Part shown: positions 2,980 to 19,990 of the stretch, piece after piece
How positions within the stretch are numbered: the first letter of the stretch is position 1
How the letters are laid out: the number at the start of each line of letters is the position of its first letter
Assembly: GCA_034676465.1 (NCBI GenBank)
Contig: JAUCCG010000069.1
Span: 1,283 to 65,282, forward strand
Source of the DNA: Brevundimonas sp.
GTDB taxonomy: Bacteria > Pseudomonadota > Alphaproteobacteria > Caulobacterales > Caulobacteraceae
Direction of reading: 5' to 3'
Length of the DNA: 64,000 bases
Translations under genes and position numbers: made by a program
Notes under the pieces: generated by a model
Seen by the model: the letters and a program-made list of their open reading frames with translations, nothing else
Told to the model about the DNA's origin: nothing
Database searches by the model: none

Positions 2980-4233
2980 CTGAACGCCAGTCCCTACGTC
3001 CTGTTTCTGCTCGGCCTCGGGGCCGTGATCCTGATGGTGTCCTGGGCCCCGGTCGGGCTCAAGCGCTGGCCGCTGACCCTGGCCATCCTGTGCGTCGGCA
3101 TCGGCGTGGTGGTATTCAGCGCCGGCGTGCTGGCCTTCGATCCCGACCCGCGCACCTGGGACACCCTGACCGAACGGCTGGCCGAGCTGGTCGTCATCAT
3201 CAGCCTGATGGGGGCCGGGCTCAAACTGGACCGGCCGCTGGGCTGGAAGCGCTGGGGCTCGACCTGGCGACTACTGGCCGTGGCCATGCCCCTGACCATC
3301 ACCGCCACCGCCTGGCTGGGCTTCATGGGCCTCGGCTTCAGCCTGGCCATGTCCCTGCTGCTGGGGGCGGCCATGGCCCCGACCGACCCGGTGCTGGCCG
3401 CCGATGTCCAGGTCGGGCCGCCGCGCTCGGGCGACGACGACGAGGTCCGCTTCGGCCTGACCTCCGAAGCCGGTCTCAACGACGCCCTGGCCTTCCCGTT
3501 GGTGCATCTGGCCATCCTCGCCGCCGCGGGAGGCCTCGCCTCGACCGCCGCCCTGGTCGACTGGTTCACGATCAAGGTGGTGTGGAAGCTGCTGGCCGGA
3601 GCCGGAGTCGGCTATCTGGTCGGGCGCGGTCTCGGCTTTCTGATCTTTCACAGCCAGAAGGCCGGGCTGTCGCGCCTCGGCGACGGTCTGGTGGCGCTGG
3701 CGGCCACCTTCCTCGCCTATGCCGTGACCGAGCTGGCCCACGGCTATGGTTTCCTGGCTGTGTTCATCTGCGGCCTGACCATCCGCGCCCGGGAGCGCGA
3801 CAACGACTTCCACAAGGAGATGCACGACTTCTCCGACCAGTTCGAACGGCTGCTGATGATGCTGCTGCTGGTGCTGTTCGGCGGGGCCCTGGCCAACGGC
3901 CTGCTGGACGCCCTGACCTGGACCGACGCCGCCATCGGCCTGGCCATCCTGCTGGTGGTGCGTCCGGTCGCCGGCCTGATCGCCATGATCGGCTCGCCCC
4001 AGCCGTGGCGCAAGCGACTGCTGATGGCCTTCCTCGGAATCCGCGGCATCGGCTCGATCTATTATGTGGCCTATGCCATCAACCACGGCGATTTCGGCAA
4101 CAGCGAGCGGCTGTGGGCCATCGTCGGCTTTATCATCCTCGCCTCGATCCTGATCCACGGCGTCAGCGCCAGCCCGATGCTGATGCGACTGGCGCGCCGC
4201 CGGGGTCGCGAGGACCCGACGACCATCAGCTGA
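2980..4233 (+). CDS. CPA1/NhaP-type cation:proton antiporter
   Basis: Multiple TM helices; LLLGAAMAPTDPVLA, SEAGLNDALAFP, GIRGIGS; likely CTG start at 2980 behind GAGG. Confidence 0.88.
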   Translation: MNASPYVLFLLGLGAVILMVSWAPVGLKRWPLTLAILCVGIGVVVFSAGVLAFDPDPRTWDTLTERLAELVVIISLMGAGLKLDRPLGWKRWGSTWRLLAVAMPLTITATAWLGFMGLGFSLAMSLLLGAAMAPTDPVLAADVQVGPPRSGDDDEVRFGLTSEAGLNDALAFPLVHLAILAAAGGLASTAALVDWFTIKVVWKLLAGAGVGYLVGRGLGFLIFHSQKAGLSRLGDGLVALAATFLAYAVTELAHGYGFLAVFICGLTIRARERDNDFHKEMHDFSDQFERLLMMLLLVLFGGALANGLLDALTWTDAAIGLAILLVVRPVAGLIAMIGSPQPWRKRLLMAFLGIRGIGSIYYVAYAINHGDFGNSERLWAIVGFIILASILIHGVSASPMLMRLARRRGREDPTTIS

Positions 4234-4292: not shown

Positions 4293-5114
4293 ATGACGAG
4301 CGAGAGCGGCTGGAACATGCCCAGGGGTGACCTCATGAAGGGCAAGAAGGGCCTGATCATGGGAGTCGCGAACAGCAACTCCATCGCCTGGGGCATCGCC
4401 TCGCAGCTGGCCGCCCAGGGGGCCGAGCTGGCCTTCACCTATCTGGGCGAGGGGCTGGAGCGCCGGGTGCGCCCGCTGGCCGAGAGCGTCGGCGCGAAAC
4501 TGCTGGTCCAGGCCGACGTGACCGACGACGCCTCGATGGACGCCGCCTTCGCCGAGCTGGAAAAGGAGTTCGGCACGCTCGACTTCGTCGTCCACTCCGT
4601 GGCCTTCGCCAACAAGGACGAGCTCAAGGGCTCCTTCGTCGAGAATACCAGCCGCGACAGCTTCCTGCTGGCCATGAACATCTCGGCCTTCAGCTTCGTC
4701 GACGTGGCCAAACGCGCCGCGCGGATCATGCCCAATGGCGGGTCGATGATCACCATGACCTATCTCGGGTCCGAGCGGGCCATCCCCAACTACAACACCA
4801 TGGGCGTGGCCAAGGCGGCGCTGGAGGCGGCCACCCGCTACATCGCCCGCGACCTGGGACCCAAGGGCATCCGCGTCAACGCCATCTCGGCCGGGGCCAT
4901 GCGCACCCTGTCGCTGGCCGGCATCTCGGGCGGTCGCGGCATGATCAGCCAGGGCCGCGCCATGAGCGCGATGAAGGAGGACACCTCGATGGAGGGGGTC
5001 GCCGGCTGCGCCCTGTGGCTGTGTTCGGACCTGGGCCTGTCGACCACCGGCGAGATCATCCACGTCGACGCCGGCTTCCACATGATGGGCCTGGCCGGCG
5101 ACGAGGAGGGTTGA
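4293..5114 (+). CDS. fabI: Enoyl-ACP reductase
   Basis: GKKGLIMGVANSNSIAWGIA; YNTMGVAKAALE; TGEIIHVDAGFH. Confidence 0.96.
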   Translation: MTSESGWNMPRGDLMKGKKGLIMGVANSNSIAWGIASQLAAQGAELAFTYLGEGLERRVRPLAESVGAKLLVQADVTDDASMDAAFAELEKEFGTLDFVVHSVAFANKDELKGSFVENTSRDSFLLAMNISAFSFVDVAKRAARIMPNGGSMITMTYLGSERAIPNYNTMGVAKAALEAATRYIARDLGPKGIRVNAISAGAMRTLSLAGISGGRGMISQGRAMSAMKEDTSMEGVAGCALWLCSDLGLSTTGEIIHVDAGFHMMGLAGDEEG

Positions 5115-5212
5115 CCCCCGGTTGCGCCGGATACTCGAGCCCCCCTTAACGGGAATTTGATTCGGCGCACAACCGGTCCTCAGACATCGTGCCGTCTCCT
5201 ACAGACATGAGG
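5034..5212 (+). repeat. Direct repeat copy 1: fabI 3' end plus downstream promoter region
   Basis: GGCCTGTCGACC...GGCTTCCACATGATGGGCCTGGCCGGCGACGAGG...TAACGGGAATTT...CATCGTGCCGTCT...ACAGAC..GAGG, repeated at 5737-5912. Confidence 0.95.
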
Positions 5213-5256
5213 TCCGGAGGTGAACCGTGATGCCCAGCCCTGTCCGTAGTCGCGCC

Positions 5257-5788
5257 ATGTACCGATTATGCATGGGTCTGGGTTTGCTGCTGTTGTCGGC
5301 AGGCTGCGCCAACACAAGGCCTGCCAATTATCGCGGACCCGCAGACTGCGGTCTCTGAACCCTGGCCGTTTGGGAGTCTGGTGGCGCAAGGATCCCGAGG
5401 TCATCGGCTCGAGATCGCCACAGAGGCCGGTGTGTTCAACCATGCGACGGCGACACTGGGTTTCGAAGGTCAAACGTGGCGGGTGACGGATACGGACTGC
5501 CCGCAGTTCCGCGCGGCACTTGATGCCTTTCAGATCCTTCCCGCCCTCAAGCCAGGACCCGCCCTGCTTCAGCCGGGCGCGCGCGGGCATCCCATGCCGC
5601 CGTACCGACCGCACGGTGGAAATTGGACGATCAGAACCCAGCTATACGCGCCGGACTGGTCGTTCATGGACGTGGAAATGCGCGGCGGACAAGGGCCCTA
5701 CGCCTTCTGGCTGACCGATACGGTGGCCGTGATCAAGGCCTGTCGACCGCCGGCGAGATCATCCACGTCGACGCCGGCTTCCACATGA
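5257..5788 (+). CDS. Lipoprotein, paralogue A of a two-Cys exported family (frameshift near 5316)
   Basis: MYRLCMGLGLLLLSAG-C lipobox; joins the frame of ORF 5381..5788 (WRVTDTDCPQF...IKAC). Confidence 0.7.
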
Positions 5789-5912
5789 TGGGCCTGGCCG
5801 GCGACGAGGCGAGCTGACCCCGGTCGCGCCGGACACTCCTCCCGCCTAACGGGAATTTAATTCGGAACGCAACCGGCCCTCAGCCATCGTGCCGTCTGTG
5901 ACAGACGGGAGG
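5737..5912 (+). repeat. Direct repeat copy 2: fabI tail remnant plus promoter region
   Basis: Encodes GLSTAGEIIHVDAGFHMMGLAGDEAS*, nearly identical to the FabI C-terminus; intergenic part more diverged. Confidence 0.95.
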
Positions 5913-5918
5913 CGAGCC

Positions 5919-6612
5919 GTGACGGACCCAACCAACCCGGGCGACATCAGCGTCGTCGGCCAGCGCCGGTGGCCCGGAGGATCGTTCCCGGGCGGTGGTG
6001 GCGGAGGCAAGGACGAGACCACCGGGGAAGTCCCGGAAACGGAAGAACTGCCGGACCCGCTTGAAGAGGTCATGCCGGATCCCTGCGCGGAACTCAGTGC
6101 TGGCCGTGGACTGGAACGCCGATGCGGCAGCGGCGGAAGCCGCTAGGAAATTTCCAGAACAGGCCGCCGCCCGGTCCCCAGCCGAAGACTTGAATACAAG
6201 AGAGTGGGGGGCGTACCTCTATCGCGCTGGGGACGGTTCAATCCAGGTCGGGCCGATCACCCCGGGGCCAGCGTTCTCCTTCGGGGGGTCAGGTACAGTG
6301 AGACCGATCTTGGGCGATTTCGATCCTTCAGCAATCGTGGGATCCGTGCATAGCCACAGTGCTGGAAATCACCTCCCTTCCAGCGGGAACGACCAGGAAC
6401 CCGGTGATATCCAACATTTGACCGGACTGGTGGCCTATTCGGGAAACCCGTCCGCCCGCCTTTATATCGTTGCCCAAAATCAGGGGCCTGCCGGCTTTGT
6501 TCCCTACAATCAGATCAACATCTATAATCAATCGACGATCCAGCAGACCCGTGACAACTTTACCCCCGGGCCTGAAGTTAACCCCGACGGAACGCCATGT
6601 CCCGGAACCTAA
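5919..6612 (+). CDS. Putative toxin: TonB-box-like N-terminus, Gly linker, JAB/DUF4329-like domain (frameshift near 6089)
   Basis: GGGAGG then GTG; MTDPTNPGDISVVGQRR..GGGGGG; REWGAYLY; VGSVHSHSAGNHLPSSGND. Confidence 0.65.
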
Positions 6613-7235
6613 TCACCCCGTTATTCGTGCTGGCCAGTATATTGTCGTGCGGAACAACCAGGGCCCAAGAGGCCGTGTTCGGTGCCAGCCTTCAACCGCG
6701 GATCGTTGAAGGTGAGGCGCAGAAGCCACCGGGGACCTTCTACATCGGTGGCTACAGCAGCCCGGGCGGTACGGCGCGATACGTCGTTCATTTCTATTCG
6801 GTCCGTGACCCGGCTGACAGGCGTCCGGAAGGCGTTCCCTACGTCTCCATTCCAATCGCGAGTCGGTCATACGAAACGGGGACTGGAACTGGACCGCAGC
6901 AATGGGCGGACGGTCGAGCCTGCGCCGCACTCTATGGCGTGATGTACGAGTTTGCTCGGCTTGTGCCGCCGCTGTTCCACACGCCCCGTTTCACTCCTGA
7001 ACCGGAGGGATCCTCCCGGCTGGGGTCGGTGCCGTTGGGGGTTCACGCGCCGATCGTTTCCGTCTGGGGCTACGCCCGGCAAGCGGACGGCGCGCCGATG
7101 AGCATGATGCTGACCGGAACCGACGGAATTATTGATCGCTGGGTCCGGTTTGCCGAAGACCAGCTTGCAGACTGCTGGGGCCCCGGGCGACCGACCTTCG
7201 AACAGGGACCGGTTCCGGCGACGCAATCGAAGTGA
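6597..7235 (+). CDS. Exported protein, paralogue B (candidate immunity)
   Basis: Signal peptide; WADGRACAAL...QLADCW; overlaps the upstream stop. Confidence 0.75.
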   Translation: MSRNLITPLFVLASILSCGTTRAQEAVFGASLQPRIVEGEAQKPPGTFYIGGYSSPGGTARYVVHFYSVRDPADRRPEGVPYVSIPIASRSYETGTGTGPQQWADGRACAALYGVMYEFARLVPPLFHTPRFTPEPEGSSRLGSVPLGVHAPIVSVWGYARQADGAPMSMMLTGTDGIIDRWVRFAEDQLADCWGPGRPTFEQGPVPATQSK

Positions 7236-7251
7236 ACCGGGAGGCGCAACC

Positions 7252-7772
7252 ATGTTCCTGACGATCTTGCTGGCTGGAGCGATCAACGCGGGACCGTCCC
7301 CGGTCGACTGGCTTCAACAGCTGCAGGCGGAGCCTTTCGAACGGTCGATGCCGAAGGCGGTCATCATCCAGACCCGGAAGTTTGCCGCCTCAACGGCCAT
7401 CAGCCTGTATGAGACGCGTTCGGCGGACGGGACCGGAACGGAGTCGTCTATCTGGCATGCGCGGCGCGAGGTCCGGACCGGAGATGACCGCGTTATCGCC
7501 TGGACCTCAACCGTGTCGTGCGCGCCGCTGTTCTCCGTCATCGTCGCCCTGGAGCGACTGGCGCTGCCGCATGTCGAGCTGCGCCAACCCCGGGCGGATC
7601 AGTTTCCGACACCCCGACCGGTGATGGGAGCCCTGCATCAGAGCCATCTGGTGTGGGTTACCGCTTGGGATCCGGAAACGCGCCGGTTCAGCTGACGCTG
7701 GAATCCCTCGGGTCCGGCCCGCCGAAACAGATCTATGACCTGGTCGACGCTCAACTTTCAGCGTGCTGGTAA
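7252..7772 (+). CDS. Exported protein, paralogue C (frameshift near 7680)
   Basis: GGGAGG RBS; MFLTILLAGAINA; WTSTVSCAPL...QLSACW*. Confidence 0.7.
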
Positions 7773-7839: not shown

Positions 7840-8367
7840 TCAGTCCGGTTCGCGCTCGCCGATCTCTTCGGGGCGCACCACCCGCAGCCAGCCGTCGGCG
7901 ATGTGCAGGTCCGGCACCGCCGCGCGGGTGAAGGGCACGAACCAGGTCGGTCCACCGGTCGCCGGGGTGATCTCCAGCATGTCGCCGGCCCCGAAATTCT
8001 GCACGGTCCGCACCGTGCCCAGCACCGCGTCAGCCGGATCGCGCGCCTCCAGCCCGACCAGGTCGGCGAGGTAGAATTCGTCCTCGTCCGGCTCGGGGAA
8101 GCGGTCGCGCGGCACATAGAGTTTCAGATTGCGCAGGGCGTCGGCCTGTTCCTTGGTCTCGACTTCCTTTACCCGGCCGACGATGCCGTCCTTGGATGCA
8201 CGGGCCGTCGTCACGGTCAGGGCGTGGCTGCCGTCGGCCCGCAGCAGCGGTCCATAGGCGGTCAGGGCCAGGGGATCGGCCGTATAGGCGGTGATCTTGA
8301 CCTCGCCGCGCACGCCGAAACCGCCCGCCACATGGCCGACGAGGATGAGAGTGCTGTCTGTGGTCAT
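7840..8367 (-). CDS. rimM: Ribosome maturation factor RimM
   Basis: LVGHVAGGFGVRGEVKI; DEFYLADLVGL; NFGAGDMLEI; downstream of rpsP. Confidence 0.95.
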   Translation of the reverse strand: MTTDSTLILVGHVAGGFGVRGEVKITAYTADPLALTAYGPLLRADGSHALTVTTARASKDGIVGRVKEVETKEQADALRNLKLYVPRDRFPEPDEDEFYLADLVGLEARDPADAVLGTVRTVQNFGAGDMLEITPATGGPTWFVPFTRAAVPDLHIADGWLRVVRPEEIGEREPD

Positions 8368-8377
8368 CTTGTAAAGT

Positions 8378-8500
8378 CCCTCTCCCTTGGGGAGAGGGGT
8401 TGGGGTGAGGGGGTACGGCGTTTCCGCAGGACACACCGTAAGCCCTCACCCTCCCACGCGCTAACACGCGCGGGCCCCGCCCTCTCCCGCTGGGAGAGGG
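8378..8500. repeat. Palindromic intergenic repeat (CIR/RIME-like)
   Basis: CCCTCTCCC..GGGAGAGGG hairpins at both ends and GGGTGAGGG/CCCTCACCC inner arms. Confidence 0.85.
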
Positions 8501-18279: not shown

Positions 18280-18834
18280 TTACGCTGCGATCGTCTCGCC
18301 GCCGACCGGGCGGTTGCAGGCGCACAGTTCGTCGGTCTGCAGGGCGTCGACGACGCGCAGGGTGTCGGCCGGGGCGCGGCCGACGTTCAGGTTGGTGACA
18401 TAGACGTGCTGCACGACGTTGTGCGGGTCGACCACGAAAGTGGCGCGCAGGGCGACGCCCTCCTCCTCGTTGAGGATACCCAGCTGGCGGGCGAACTTGC
18501 CGCCGTTGTCGGCGAACTGCCAGATCGGCAGCTTGTTCAGATCGGCATGGTCGCGACGCCAGGCCAGTTTGACGAACTCGTTATCGGTCGAGCCGCCCAT
18601 CACCACAGTATCGCGGTCCTCGAATTCGCGCGCCAGCGAGGCGAACTCGGCGATTTCGGTCGGGCAGACGAAGGTAAAATCCTTCGGATAGAAAAAGATC
18701 ACCTTCCACTTGCCCTCGAAGCTTTCGCCGGTGATCGGCTCGAACGCCGAAACGCCGTTTTCGTCGTGGTCATTGAAGCCCGGCTTCACGCCGATAACTT
18801 TGAATTCCGGCAGTTTTTCACCAACACCAAGCAT
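18280..18834 (-). CDS. ahpC: Peroxiredoxin AhpC
   Basis: FFYPKDFTFVCPTEI; LQTDELCACN. Confidence 0.96.
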   Translation of the reverse strand: MLGVGEKLPEFKVIGVKPGFNDHDENGVSAFEPITGESFEGKWKVIFFYPKDFTFVCPTEIAEFASLAREFEDRDTVVMGGSTDNEFVKLAWRRDHADLNKLPIWQFADNGGKFARQLGILNEEEGVALRATFVVDPHNVVQHVYVTNLNVGRAPADTLRVVDALQTDELCACNRPVGGETIAA

Positions 18835-18951
18835 GATCTATCCTATCGATTTAGGGACAAAGACGTGGGCGAAGACAGGGAGTCCTTCGCCGCTCCCTGT
18901 CAGATGGTCATCCGCCACCACAAAGTCAAATCGATCGTTTCGTAAGAACGA

Positions 18952-18966
18952 ATAGATTGAACCTAT
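18952..18966. promoter_or_regulatory. OxyR-binding motif
   Basis: ATAG-N7-CTAT between divergent ahpC and oxyR; a second ATAG-N7-TTAT at 19079-19093. Confidence 0.65.
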
Positions 18967-19102
18967 GCCCCAGGACTTAATCATCCGGGTGTCGCCGGTG
19001 ATCCATTTTGCGCCTCAGGACGTCGGGCCGGAGCGGCATGGCAATCGATGAACACAACCGATGGACTTTGATCTGACGATAGCGAACCCTTATATCCGCT
19101 GC

Positions 19103-19990
19103 ATGCTCCCGACCCTGCGACAGCTCCAGTATCTCAAGCTCCTGGCCGAGCACGCCTCGTTCAGCCGCGCCGCCGAGGCCGCCCACGTCAGCCAGCCGGC
19201 GTTGTCGTCGGGCGTGCAGGAGCTGGAGAAAATTCTCGGGGCCCCGGTCGTCGAACGCACGCGCGGCAATGTCCAGCTGACGGCGGTCGGGGCCGAGGCC
19301 GTGCGCCGGGCCGAGGACGTGCTGGCCCGGACCGAGGATCTGGTCGAGGCGGCCCGCAATGCCGGTCGCCCGCTGTCCGGCCGTTTTCGCCTGGGTATCA
19401 TCCCGACCATCGCGCCCTTCCTGTTGCCGGCCAAATTGCCGGGACTCGGCGCGGCCTATCCGGCCCTGCGCCTGTTCATCCGCGAGGACCTGACGCCGCG
19501 ACTGATCGCCGGGCTCAAGGCCGGACAGCTGGACGCGGCGGTGATCGCCCTGCCCTATGCCGCGCCGGGCATTGACCATGCCCGTATCGGCGACGACGAG
19601 ATCCTGGCCGCGGCCCCGGCCGGCCACCGGCTGGCCGCGCCCGGAGCCATCCATCCCGGGGCCTTCAGGGCCGACGATCTGATCCTGCTGGAGGACGGCC
19701 ACTGTCTGCGCGACCAGGCCCTGGCCGCCTTCGATATCGAACCGCCGCGCGGGGACGACGTCTTCGCCGCCACCTCACTGCACACCCTGGTGCAGATGGT
19801 CTCGTCCGGCCTGGGAGTCAGTTTCCTGCCGCGCATGGCCGTTGACGCCGGTCTGGCCGACATGCCCGGCGTGGTGGTTCGTCCGATCTCGGCCAAGGCC
19901 CCCAGTCGCGAGATCGTCGTCGCCTGGCGTCGGGGCTCCAGCCGCGCCGCCGAGGCCCGCCTGCTGGCCGAGGCCATGCAGCTGGACTGA
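19103..19990 (+). CDS. oxyR: H2O2-sensing LysR regulator
   Basis: LysR HTH; LLEDGHCLRDQAL; ATSLHTLVQMV; divergent from ahpC. Confidence 0.93.
   Translation: MLPTLRQLQYLKLLAEHASFSRAAEAAHVSQPALSSGVQELEKILGAPVVERTRGNVQLTAVGAEAVRRAEDVLARTEDLVEAARNAGRPLSGRFRLGIIPTIAPFLLPAKLPGLGAAYPALRLFIREDLTPRLIAGLKAGQLDAAVIALPYAAPGIDHARIGDDEILAAAPAGHRLAAPGAIHPGAFRADDLILLEDGHCLRDQALAAFDIEPPRGDDVFAATSLHTLVQMVSSGLGVSFLPRMAVDAGLADMPGVVVRPISAKAPSREIVVAWRRGSSRAAEARLLAEAMQLD

Follow-up and report, generated by a model that had tools for sequence, protein, structure and literature searches.

Colicin M-type (ColM) bacteriocins carry a TonB box in an unstructured N-terminus, and their immunity protein Cmi has a two-Cys periplasmic module, as described in the available text of PMC5821083. 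JAB domains have been catalogued as predicted toxin tips, with a lipoprotein immunity for Tox-JAB-1 (main text of PMC3482391), and the orphan immunity arrays of the Vibrio cholerae T6SS arise by homology in an anchor together with an illegitimate joint (PMC5361080, in the part available). In the window, the whole stretch of 64,000 nucleotides of Brevundimonas sp. DNA that was analysed, we describe a small protein with a predicted JAB metalloenzyme fold, whose start seems to copy the TonB box of the genome's own receptors and which is likely a toxin. To our knowledge, TonB-imported protein bacteriocins are known only from Gamma- and Betaproteobacteria and Bacteroidetes. If our reading is true, such bacteriocins would also occur, armed with a new warhead, in the Alphaproteobacteria, which are rich in receptors.

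The JAB protein and its N-terminus

The gene lies at 5919..6612 on the forward strand and encodes about 230 aa without a leader, once one indel is corrected as the original prediction had proposed. The break is an extra base at 6091 in the assembly, which is missing from the contigs of 6/6 covering runs (X1, X5, X8, X13, X12 and X15), and the homologue P0002 is uninterrupted at 230 aa. Translation from the GTG start at 5919 gives the N-terminal frame TDPTNPGDISVVGQRR, after which come a stretch of Gly and a linker rich in Pro and acidic residues, while REWGAYLY and HSH..PS are located in the second frame of the gene. The claim that there is no signal peptide holds across the family: a hydrophobic signal stretch is found in 0/81 members within the first 35 residues and in 1/81 within the first 40. 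Tat export was considered for the twin arginine and rejected, as there is no hydrophobic stretch. The family proteins stand alone at 210-250 aa, are matched by the profile from residue 1 and have no Rhs, T6SS or T7SS trunk. They share a conserved pair of N- and C-terminal cysteines and the C-terminal consensus GPEVNPxAxPCP.

The putative metal site spans 6202..6408 (forward strand), with E at 6202-6204, H-S-H at 6349-6357 and S at 6379-6381. Of the motif E...HxH...S..D that was originally read here, E, HxH and S are present, but the D is not that of 'PSxxxD'; it is a later one in 'GDI' (6406-6408), displaced by an insertion in this JAB subtype. In P0002 numbering H144, H146, S154 and D163 are invariant in 50/50 members, and R94, E95, H144 and H146 in 43/43. 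Among the 81 core-bearing cluster representatives, HxH is present in 79 and RE in 77. The most frequent His-Ser spacing is 7 residues (41 sequences), matching the signature E...HxH-x7-S...D.

With the predicted model (pLDDT 85; residues 1-10 and 27-48 disordered) as query, Foldseek finds five matches at E<=0.001, every one an MPN protein, with modest scores (E 2e-4 to 1e-3, TM about 0.3). VIA aligns the model with BRISC/BRCC36 (Z 7.9, rmsd 3.7, 123-132 aligned) and PfJAMM1 (Z 7.4). Judged by predicted fold and metal site, the protein belongs to the JAB/MPN+ (JAMM) superfamily, and the domain is predicted to function as a Zn-dependent hydrolase. The earlier label JAB/DUF4329 is therefore supported in its first half only, since DUF4329 (PF14220) matches 0/50 family members at E<=0.1 in Pfam. 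The link to DUF4329 is a UniRef name on P0062 and atlas neighbours at 0.84, which are DUF4329 and Toxin-JAB1 clusters and serve as leads only. The same 50 members have no Pfam match to Toxin-JAB1 or to the ColM catalytic domain, the fold being MPN instead, and 9/50 match Prok-JAB weakly. Profiles of desampylase (6/43), PADLOC JAB (at most 3/43 per model), BilC (1/43) and Cap3 (1/43) and a bacterial Ubl-DUB complex in VIA (Z 7.1) also match, as they might if the protein worked inside the cell like a deubiquitinase, as part of anti-phage defence or of a sulphur-carrier system (CBASS Cap3, BilC, desampylase). But every one of the profile matches is weak, the loci show no gene for E1, E2, Ubl or CD-NTase, and a TonB-like start and an exported partner do not suit such a role, which we regard as highly improbable.

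The motif DISVVGQRR (5943..5969, forward strand) was originally compared with the TonB boxes of Caulobacteraceae receptors, and this comparison is borne out. G14, Q15, R16 and R17 are conserved at 90% or more, and the TonB-like pattern is found in 68/81 core-bearing cluster representatives, so that the motif is indeed a conserved one. Receptors in the same genome carry DDVIVTAQRR and DDIIVTAQKR. The profile of the N-terminus matches weakly 103 times in 301 genomes (model positions about 3-25), and 86/103 matches lie in frames of 630-1130 aa, the size of TonB receptors, against a background of 3.9%; in the three receptor fragments that were fetched, a Plug domain follows immediately. TonB-box-like words are also found in signal-peptide proteins without a barrel, and the motif alone is therefore no proof of import. 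By sequence and model, the box would lie in an unstructured N-terminus as in group-B colicins, and we infer that the protein is imported by TonB. The only elements that the predicted model has between box and JAB core are a linker, which is disordered, and a single long helix; no separate receptor-binding domain is evident. If true, TonB-driven protein uptake would have a new minimal form, in which an import tag of about 50 residues suffices and no folded receptor-binding domain is needed.

Variable C-termini had been expected behind this N-terminus, and here the prediction found no support: all protein matches (10/10) and all strong genome matches (11/11) of the leaderless form, in Brevundimonas, carry JAB. 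Ten weak matches in unusually short frames were rejected as alternative C-termini, three being receptor fragments and seven likely off-frame chance. Variation is found only among distant relatives with a double-glycine leader, which end in JAB, HExxH zincin-like or glycine-zipper-like domains. In the genus g49 a double-glycine-type leader precedes the TonB-like motif and the genes adjoin C39/ABC, HlyD and TolC-like genes, i.e. a probable bacteriocin export route (PCAT); leader and linked PCAT are present in L056/L141 and L140. Among leader-bearing relatives, the L082 pair has no adjoining partner gene and L054 has a degenerate metal site. The window protein lacks the leader, and no C39 peptidase was found in its genome (G000, 72% complete).

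TonB-powered protease export is known in Myxococcus, and the motif might serve the producer: as a handle it could be used in docking or in TonB-powered export, and as a decoy it could jam TonB or receptors, as a defence against phages or the bacteriocins of rivals, for instance, with JAB activity being secondary. The barrel-less TonB-box proteins of these genomes and the absence of a known export route would suit this. We nevertheless think it very unlikely: the protein has no signal peptide with which to reach the producer's periplasm, the leader-bearing relatives keep the box although PCAT already serves export, and the metal residues are invariant.

The family comprises 101 clusters at E<=1e-30, only in Caulobacteraceae among the groups searched and mostly in Brevundimonas, and 190 clusters (50% identity) at E<=1e-10. 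Its distribution is patchy, with the gene in 30/151 genomes of the genus. No relative was found in 300 genomes of other Alphaproteobacteria at E<=1e-5, nor among 119 pattern matches checked in viral contigs. Weak JAB-profile matches in 250-aa frames were RadC-like where inspected (L061, L099) and were excluded from the family.

The exported partner proteins

Three exported paralogues were said to flank the JAB gene, and P1 (5257..5788), P2 (6597..7235) and P3 (7252..7772), all on the forward strand, do belong to one two-Cys family. A hydrophobic signal stretch is found in 21/23 partner homologues, against the single one in 81 JAB proteins (first 40 residues). By eye most of the family is of signal-peptidase-I type, and P1 falls in a lipoprotein-like subfamily. 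The start of P2 overlaps the JAB stop, and P2 is likely a periplasmic immunity protein to the JAB protein. It has no Pfam family, being neither Imm-NTF2-2 nor Imm65, and its atlas matches are unnamed. Its model (pLDDT 90) has no clear match, the best being E 0.026 in Foldseek and Z 6.5 in VIA (Mago; rmsd 4.6, 109 aligned). Predicting a complex between P2 and the JAB domain gave a score of 0.00, which is evidence neither way.

As predicted, JAB homologues co-occur with the two-Cys family, and the two also co-vary (Mantel rho 0.41, 30 distinct pairs, 0/5000 shuffles), although the test overstates this, since kin do not count as independent samples and genes that are linked co-vary whatever the cause. 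In 24/30 pairs the partner of the nearest JAB neighbour ranks among the top three. In the 21 pairs with fabI, JAB correlates with the partner at 0.42 and with fabI at -0.08; the partner gene co-varies with JAB and not with the host. P1 is 74-76% identical to partners of another JAB subtype (L011, L034) and P3 is 35-37% identical to those of the L009/L022 subtype, each in a starred clade. From these similarities P1 and P3 appear to be the cognates of other JAB subtypes, orphans left by lost toxin genes.

Synthesis in the cytoplasm, together with export of the sole coupled partner, leads us to infer that the target lies elsewhere than in the cytoplasm. If it did lie there, as for a nuclease or deaminase-like activity, the protein would have to be a TonB-imported toxin that is inactive in the producer until its disulfide or metal site forms outside, with the partners intercepting it in the periplasm. 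The conserved Cys pair agrees with this, and so do the VIA matches of the JAB domain, among them RadC at Z 6.9 and cytidine deaminases at Z 6.2, and its top sequence matches, RadC and JAMM. Nuclease activity has indeed been proposed for toxin JABs (main text of PMC3482391). Nuclease bacteriocins, on the other hand, use small cytoplasmic immunity proteins (PMC5821083, available text); no cytoplasmic immunity gene was seen in the loci examined and the protein has no inner-membrane translocation domain, so that we consider this a rather improbable alternative.

The partner family is much commoner than the JAB gene (62/151 against 30/151 genomes) and often occurs alone. In 40 partner loci, chosen mostly for the absence of a nearby JAB match, JAB is present at a distance in 3, as a remnant in 2 and not at all in 35. 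Orphan immunity fits these solitary partners, and so does an independent periplasmic function. In favour of a coupled exported partner, the 7 JAB ORFs (6 distinct) that lack one of the two-Cys family are followed by other signal-peptide ORFs. The frequent solitary partners, and the existence of partner-less relatives, raise the question whether the protein is a toxin at all. It could be a signal or a scavenging enzyme that is imported, or else a peptidase with the partner as its substrate or receptor, as in kin recognition or allele-specific signalling, and allele-specific co-variation suits ligand-receptor pairs equally well. What speaks for a toxin is that the JAB gene is repeatedly lost while the partner is kept behind a C-terminal stub, that allele diversity is extreme, that leader-bearing relatives bear zincin and glycine-zipper C-termini and that a related JAB domain tips an Rhs protein (a weak match, E 4.7e-6). 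A non-toxin role thus seems unlikely to us.

The explanation we favour, and hold to be reasonably probable, is that 5919-6612 encodes a bacteriocin like colicin M or pesticin, which is imported by TonB and acts on a periplasmic target, with immunity also provided in the periplasm. The protein would be made in the cytoplasm without a signal peptide, released, and drawn by its TonB-box-like start into a related cell by way of a TonB-dependent receptor. Its Zn-dependent hydrolase domain would act in the target's periplasm, where exported P2 would neutralise it, and the N- and C-terminal cysteines would pair as a disulfide only in a periplasm or outside the cell. JAMM enzymes have isopeptidase chemistry, and the substrate may be an amide or isopeptide-type envelope bond, for instance one that cross-links peptidoglycan or tethers protein to it. 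The activity of toxin JABs has been a prediction since 2012, and a stand-alone member of 230 aa makes substrate, compartment and immunity testable; that one locus holds cognate and non-cognate partners should aid direct tests.

The array behind fabI

The upstream anchor of the array is fabI (enoyl-ACP reductase; 4293..5114, forward strand; Pfam adh_short_C2, E 3.7e-83), which is found immediately 5' of the JAB gene in 22/37 distinct loci. Its tail is duplicated in 5 of these 22. In the window, two forward-strand copies of the fabI 3' end and spacer, the first with the RBS (5034..5212) and the second ending just before the JAB gene (5737..5912), share 85 nt at 95% and 72 nt at 82%, a repeat which the original prediction overlooked. 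A recombination joint links the second copy to the 3' end of P1 at a microhomology of 16 of 19 nt. Also overlooked were two forward-strand stubs of JAB C-termini. One (5211..5249) keeps the last 12 codons of a lost JAB gene (GPEVN..AQPCP-stop, the family consensus) in DNA shared with the near-identical strain G042, and the other (7229..7261; EVN.EAQPCS-stop), from another lost gene, overlaps the start of P3 and is also in G042. Downstream, the array is bordered by a convergent gene on the reverse strand (7840..8367) which from its translation we take to be rimM-like, a border common to many loci.

Cassettes turn over from strain to strain at fabI. Three alleles are found in near-identical strains: P1-JAB-P2-P3 in the window, JAB-P2-P3 in X5 and X12, and P1-P3 in G042, whose P1 is 97% identical in DNA. 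In X5 and X1 there are contigs that pass directly from 5126 to 5841, which marks strains without P1. Like the JAB gene, P1 and P3 are broken in the assembly: an extra base near 5325 in P1 is missing in 1/1 covering run and in G042, and the base lacking in P3 after 7670 is present in 5/5 DNA runs and in G042. The indels are therefore most likely assembly errors of a 72%-complete genome. Array growth may have occurred by incoming DNA recombining in fabI and joining downstream by microhomology; toxin genes would be lost later while partners stay, P1 and P3 giving immunity to other JAB subtypes. In genomic pattern only, with allelic putative toxin-immunity pairs and a putative orphan immunity array, the locus resembles those of polymorphic toxin systems.

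No lysis or export gene was found in the JAB loci examined, and among five carrier genomes Hcp is found in 0/5 and a C39 peptidase in 2/5. Three candidates for a shared regulator were rejected, two of them based on consensus words we assumed: a CtrA-like box lies in both window spacers but in only 3/40 upstream regions (shuffle maximum 4), a LexA-like box in 4/40 (shuffle mean 2.4), and a palindrome noticed by eye in 1/39. A promoter and terminator scan stayed at chance level. RNA runs gave short contigs on JAB, P2 and P3 at a depth of 2-4, which is no proof of transcription.

Comparison with known systems

The original reading of a colicin-like TonB-dependent toxin keeps its fold, its motif and its partner co-variation, while the DUF4329 label and the variable C-termini find no support; no refutation test that could be run spoke against it. 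A wider proposal, possible but on balance doubtful, is an undescribed minimal TonB-box bacteriocin class of the Caulobacteraceae, made of box, Gly/acidic linker and enzyme, in some cases behind a double-glycine leader, and lacking a receptor-binding domain. Its JAB member would be the first JAMM-type metalloisopeptidase directed at the bacterial envelope, and a periplasmic immunity family of new fold, stockpiled behind fabI, would block it. The combination was not found described in the literature searched, which excludes most subscription papers, and a listing in the additional file of PMC3482391 is possible.

Compared within the available text of each source, Tox-JAB-2 (DUF4329) and Tox-JAB-1/Imm65 share the signature E, H[ST]H, S, D on a JAB/deaminase fold (PMC3482391), but they sit on Rhs, T2SS, T6SS or T7SS trunks, and 'TonB' is absent from the main text of that paper. 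The window protein has no DUF4329 or Toxin-JAB1 Pfam match, and its partner is neither Imm-NTF2-2 nor Imm65. CdzC/CdzD/CdzI of Caulobacter crescentus come from the same bacterial family and have an N-terminal leader and type I export, as our leader-bearing relatives seem to; however, CdzC and CdzD are glycine-zipper pore formers of 86 and 84 aa with membrane immunity, whereas the window protein is leaderless with a predicted enzyme fold, and the available text of that paper lacks the word 'TonB' (PMC5380434). As in the Vibrio cholerae T6SS arrays, effectors appear displaced, immunity genes kept and 3' stubs left behind, but here the anchor is the housekeeping gene fabI and the locus has no secretion machine (PMC5361080). 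The window protein resembles colicin M/ColM with Cmi in its small size, an unstructured TonB-box N-terminus, a C-terminal enzyme domain, an adjoining exported two-Cys immunity (predicted here) and several unrelated immunity families recruited (PMC5821083). Unlike that system, it has a predicted JAB/MPN fold, no evident receptor-binding domain and partners outside Pfam, mostly of signal-peptidase-I type by eye, and it belongs to the Alphaproteobacteria and to an orphan array anchored at fabI.

The JAB protein and its family

The locus lies between fabI (4293-5114) and a convergent rimM-like gene on contig C69 of a 2.84 Mb, 72% complete genome, and near-identical DNA is carried by sludge, bioreactor and biofilm metagenomes. 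Its close homologous loci bear the name Brevundimonas. The JAB reading frames hold as first described, the N-terminal one starting at 5919 and the catalytic one stopping at 6612. The presumed one-indel break between them is a single extra base at 6091, absent from the contigs of all six covering sequencing runs. The indels of the first and third partner paralogues, P1 (5257..5788) and P3 (7252..7772), are likewise absent elsewhere, and all three are therefore most likely assembly errors. Further analyses of the JAB protein used P0002, an intact natural homologue of 230 aa. An SH3-like gene at 356-1093 also looks frameshifted, consistent with indel errors of this assembly. Elsewhere in the window, two palindromic REP-like repeats form a pair, with a 23-nt hairpin inside, between the rimM-like and rpsP-like genes (8378-8500), and GC falls to 55-57% at 18500-19250.

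In the predicted model (pLDDT 85), the start and the linker are disordered, and one long helix precedes the MPN core. It matches JAB/MPN proteins in Foldseek and VIA, in agreement with the fold originally predicted; a PDB sequence search weakly returned AfJAMM and RadC. The suggested membership of DUF4329 was not borne out, as Pfam matched that family in 0 of 50 members and Prok-JAB in 9. Taking fold matches and Pfam result together, the modelled protein is a JAB-superfamily member in a family of its own, its putative metal Asp lying in 'GDI'.

We identified 63 homologues out of 520 candidates, and a 43-sequence profile gave 457, 190 and 101 clusters (50% identity) at E<=1e-3, 1e-10 and 1e-30, the best nearly all 210-250 aa and aligned from residue 1. 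Among the 81 of 150 listed matches with the core present and at least 195 aa, 68 show the TonB-like pattern, 79 HxH, 77 RE and 78 the C-terminal Cys; both Cys are found in 50 by a strict pattern, and a hydrophobic signal in none. The family is present in 30/151 genomes of the genus and in few other genera of Caulobacteraceae, with no member in 300 other Alphaproteobacteria and no relative in the viral contigs searched. The C-terminal domain of a 3764-aa Rhs/LysM protein (L086:3443-14734) matches the JAB profile weakly.

The TonB-box-like start and leader-bearing relatives

Mature receptors of this genome open with DDVIVTAQRR or DDIIVTAQKR, and in JAB homologues the motif reads DDIVVVGQRR or DEVVVTGQRR. 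When a 36-position profile was built on 29 N-termini, its 11 strong matches all fell at JAB loci. Of its 103 weak matches, 86 fall in 630-1130-aa frames, which hold 3.9% of residues in the genome, and in three fetched receptor fragments a Plug domain stands directly behind the match. With own-receptor starts, receptor-sized matches and Plug domains in agreement, the original likening of the motif to a TonB box is well supported at the sequence level, and the motif would drive import of JAB. The same word also occurs on signal-peptide proteins without a barrel, and we see a slim chance that it serves the producer side. Barrel-less exported proteins of this kind were seen at C46:10796-11782 (minus strand) of the same genome and L105:1-306. 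In some JAB relatives (L055, L081, L017, L138; P0164, P0176, P0213, P0229) the TonB-like word is preceded by an acidic extension of 50-130 residues, which may be a further export signal.

In genus g49, which we take to be Caulobacter, four distant JABs open with a leader, presumably of the double-glycine type, directly followed by the TonB-like word; HlyD, C39/ABC and TolC-like genes lie near leader-bearing JABs. A pair on the minus strand (L082:2241-2900 and 3101-3754) has HlyD or C39/ABC genes and a GT9-like glycosyltransferase nearby, and HlyD or C39/ABC genes adjoin those at L056:1276-1938 and L054:1291-1905, the last with a degenerate metal site. Two leader-bearing JABs have no adjoining partner gene. 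The leader plus TonB-like start, found in 5/81 genomes, also occurs on two other kinds of protein, zincin-like ones with HExxH (weak Peptidase_M91) and glycine-zipper-like ones (L091:1495-2241; L097:1501-2085 and 2211-2846; L093:1087-1548; L140), which possibly form a polymorphic TonB-box bacteriocin family; PCAT and TolC-like genes were observed beside them. The expectation of variable C-termini thus stands for the leader-bearing form and is not supported for the leaderless one, where only JAB was found (10/10). The leader-bearing relatives link the TonB-box/JAB architecture to bacteriocin export and domain swapping. For leaderless JAB, no export route was found in the loci and carrier genomes searched; that it is an intracellular defence protein strikes us as very improbable.

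Partner proteins and the fabI-anchored array

P1, P2 (6597..7235, the cognate partner) and P3 are exported paralogues as proposed. Their family is marked by a pair of conserved Cys and by a hydrophobic stretch near the N-terminus, the latter present in 21/23 P2 homologues; no Pfam family matched. JAB and its first downstream partner co-vary (rho 0.41, 0/5000 shuffles; 30 distinct pairs, kin not independent), and the host marker fabI tracks neither (-0.08 and -0.13; 21 pairs with fabI, kin not independent). Next downstream of seven JAB ORFs without this family come other signal-peptide ORFs. Two further exported partner families without a Pfam match follow other JAB subclades at non-fabI loci, one at L013, L014, L016, L018 and L052, the other at L055, L056, L060, L081 and L084.

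The partner family occurs in 62/151 genomes (including G518, which is flagged unpublished and was used for the count alone), and 35/40 partner loci, chosen mostly for lack of a nearby JAB, contain none. Being commoner than JAB and often without it nearby counts against a pure immunity role; that JAB is a non-toxic signal or enzyme appears unlikely to us. Tandem partner-family pairs without a JAB gene were seen at L117 and L118 in one genome, G228, which has six copies.

P1 shares 74-76% identity with partners from a JAB subtype that has just 31% identity to the JAB of the window, and P3 clusters with partners of a third subtype; each is preceded by the final codons of a JAB gene. Among 37 distinct JAB loci (43 fetched, six twice), fabI is immediately upstream in 22, five of which have a second fabI tail; its length varies, and this speaks against the action of a site-specific integrase. 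The window carries a repeat of the fabI 3' end together with the spacer. A genome with 96% identical DNA, G042, has the order fabI-P1-stub-P3, the stub being the last codons of a lost JAB gene, and lacks 5767-7230; at the joint, 16/19 nt agree between the fabI tail and the 3' end of its P1. Contigs of two sequencing runs (X5, X12) read fabI-JAB-P2-P3, with P1 missing. In the simplest history, fabI-anchored recombination and a microhomology joint would add cassettes, with toxin genes lost and partners kept; the same kind of history has been proposed for Vibrio T6SS arrays (PMC5361080). Both spacer copies contain a CtrA-box-like word with one mismatch (5146-5160 and 5846-5860), rejected as a general family feature (3/40).

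Proposed mode of action and relation to known systems

JAB would be made in the cytoplasm and its only coupled partner is exported, from which a target outside the cytoplasm would be expected, as for colicin M. We consider this colicin-M-like reading moderately probable. Colicin M has an unstructured TonB box, and its immunity protein Cmi has two Cys (PMC5821083). The substrate might be an envelope amide or isopeptide bond, which is a guess. A cytoplasmic target seems improbable to us, although nuclease activity has been proposed for toxin JABs (PMC3482391); the immunity of Tox-JAB-1 is a lipoprotein (PMC3482391).

We found no description of a combined TonB box, JAB domain and partner array in the literature, the additional file of PMC3482391 lying outside our scope. 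By the features tested, the JAB protein falls outside ColM, DUF4329 and class II bacteriocins. The nearest described system in Caulobacteraceae, CdzC/D, differs in size, fold and immunity (PMC5380434). The original observation is real, and the TonB-box/JAB system is predicted to work like the ColM-type bacteriocins, with a polymorphic-toxin-like immunity array in addition.
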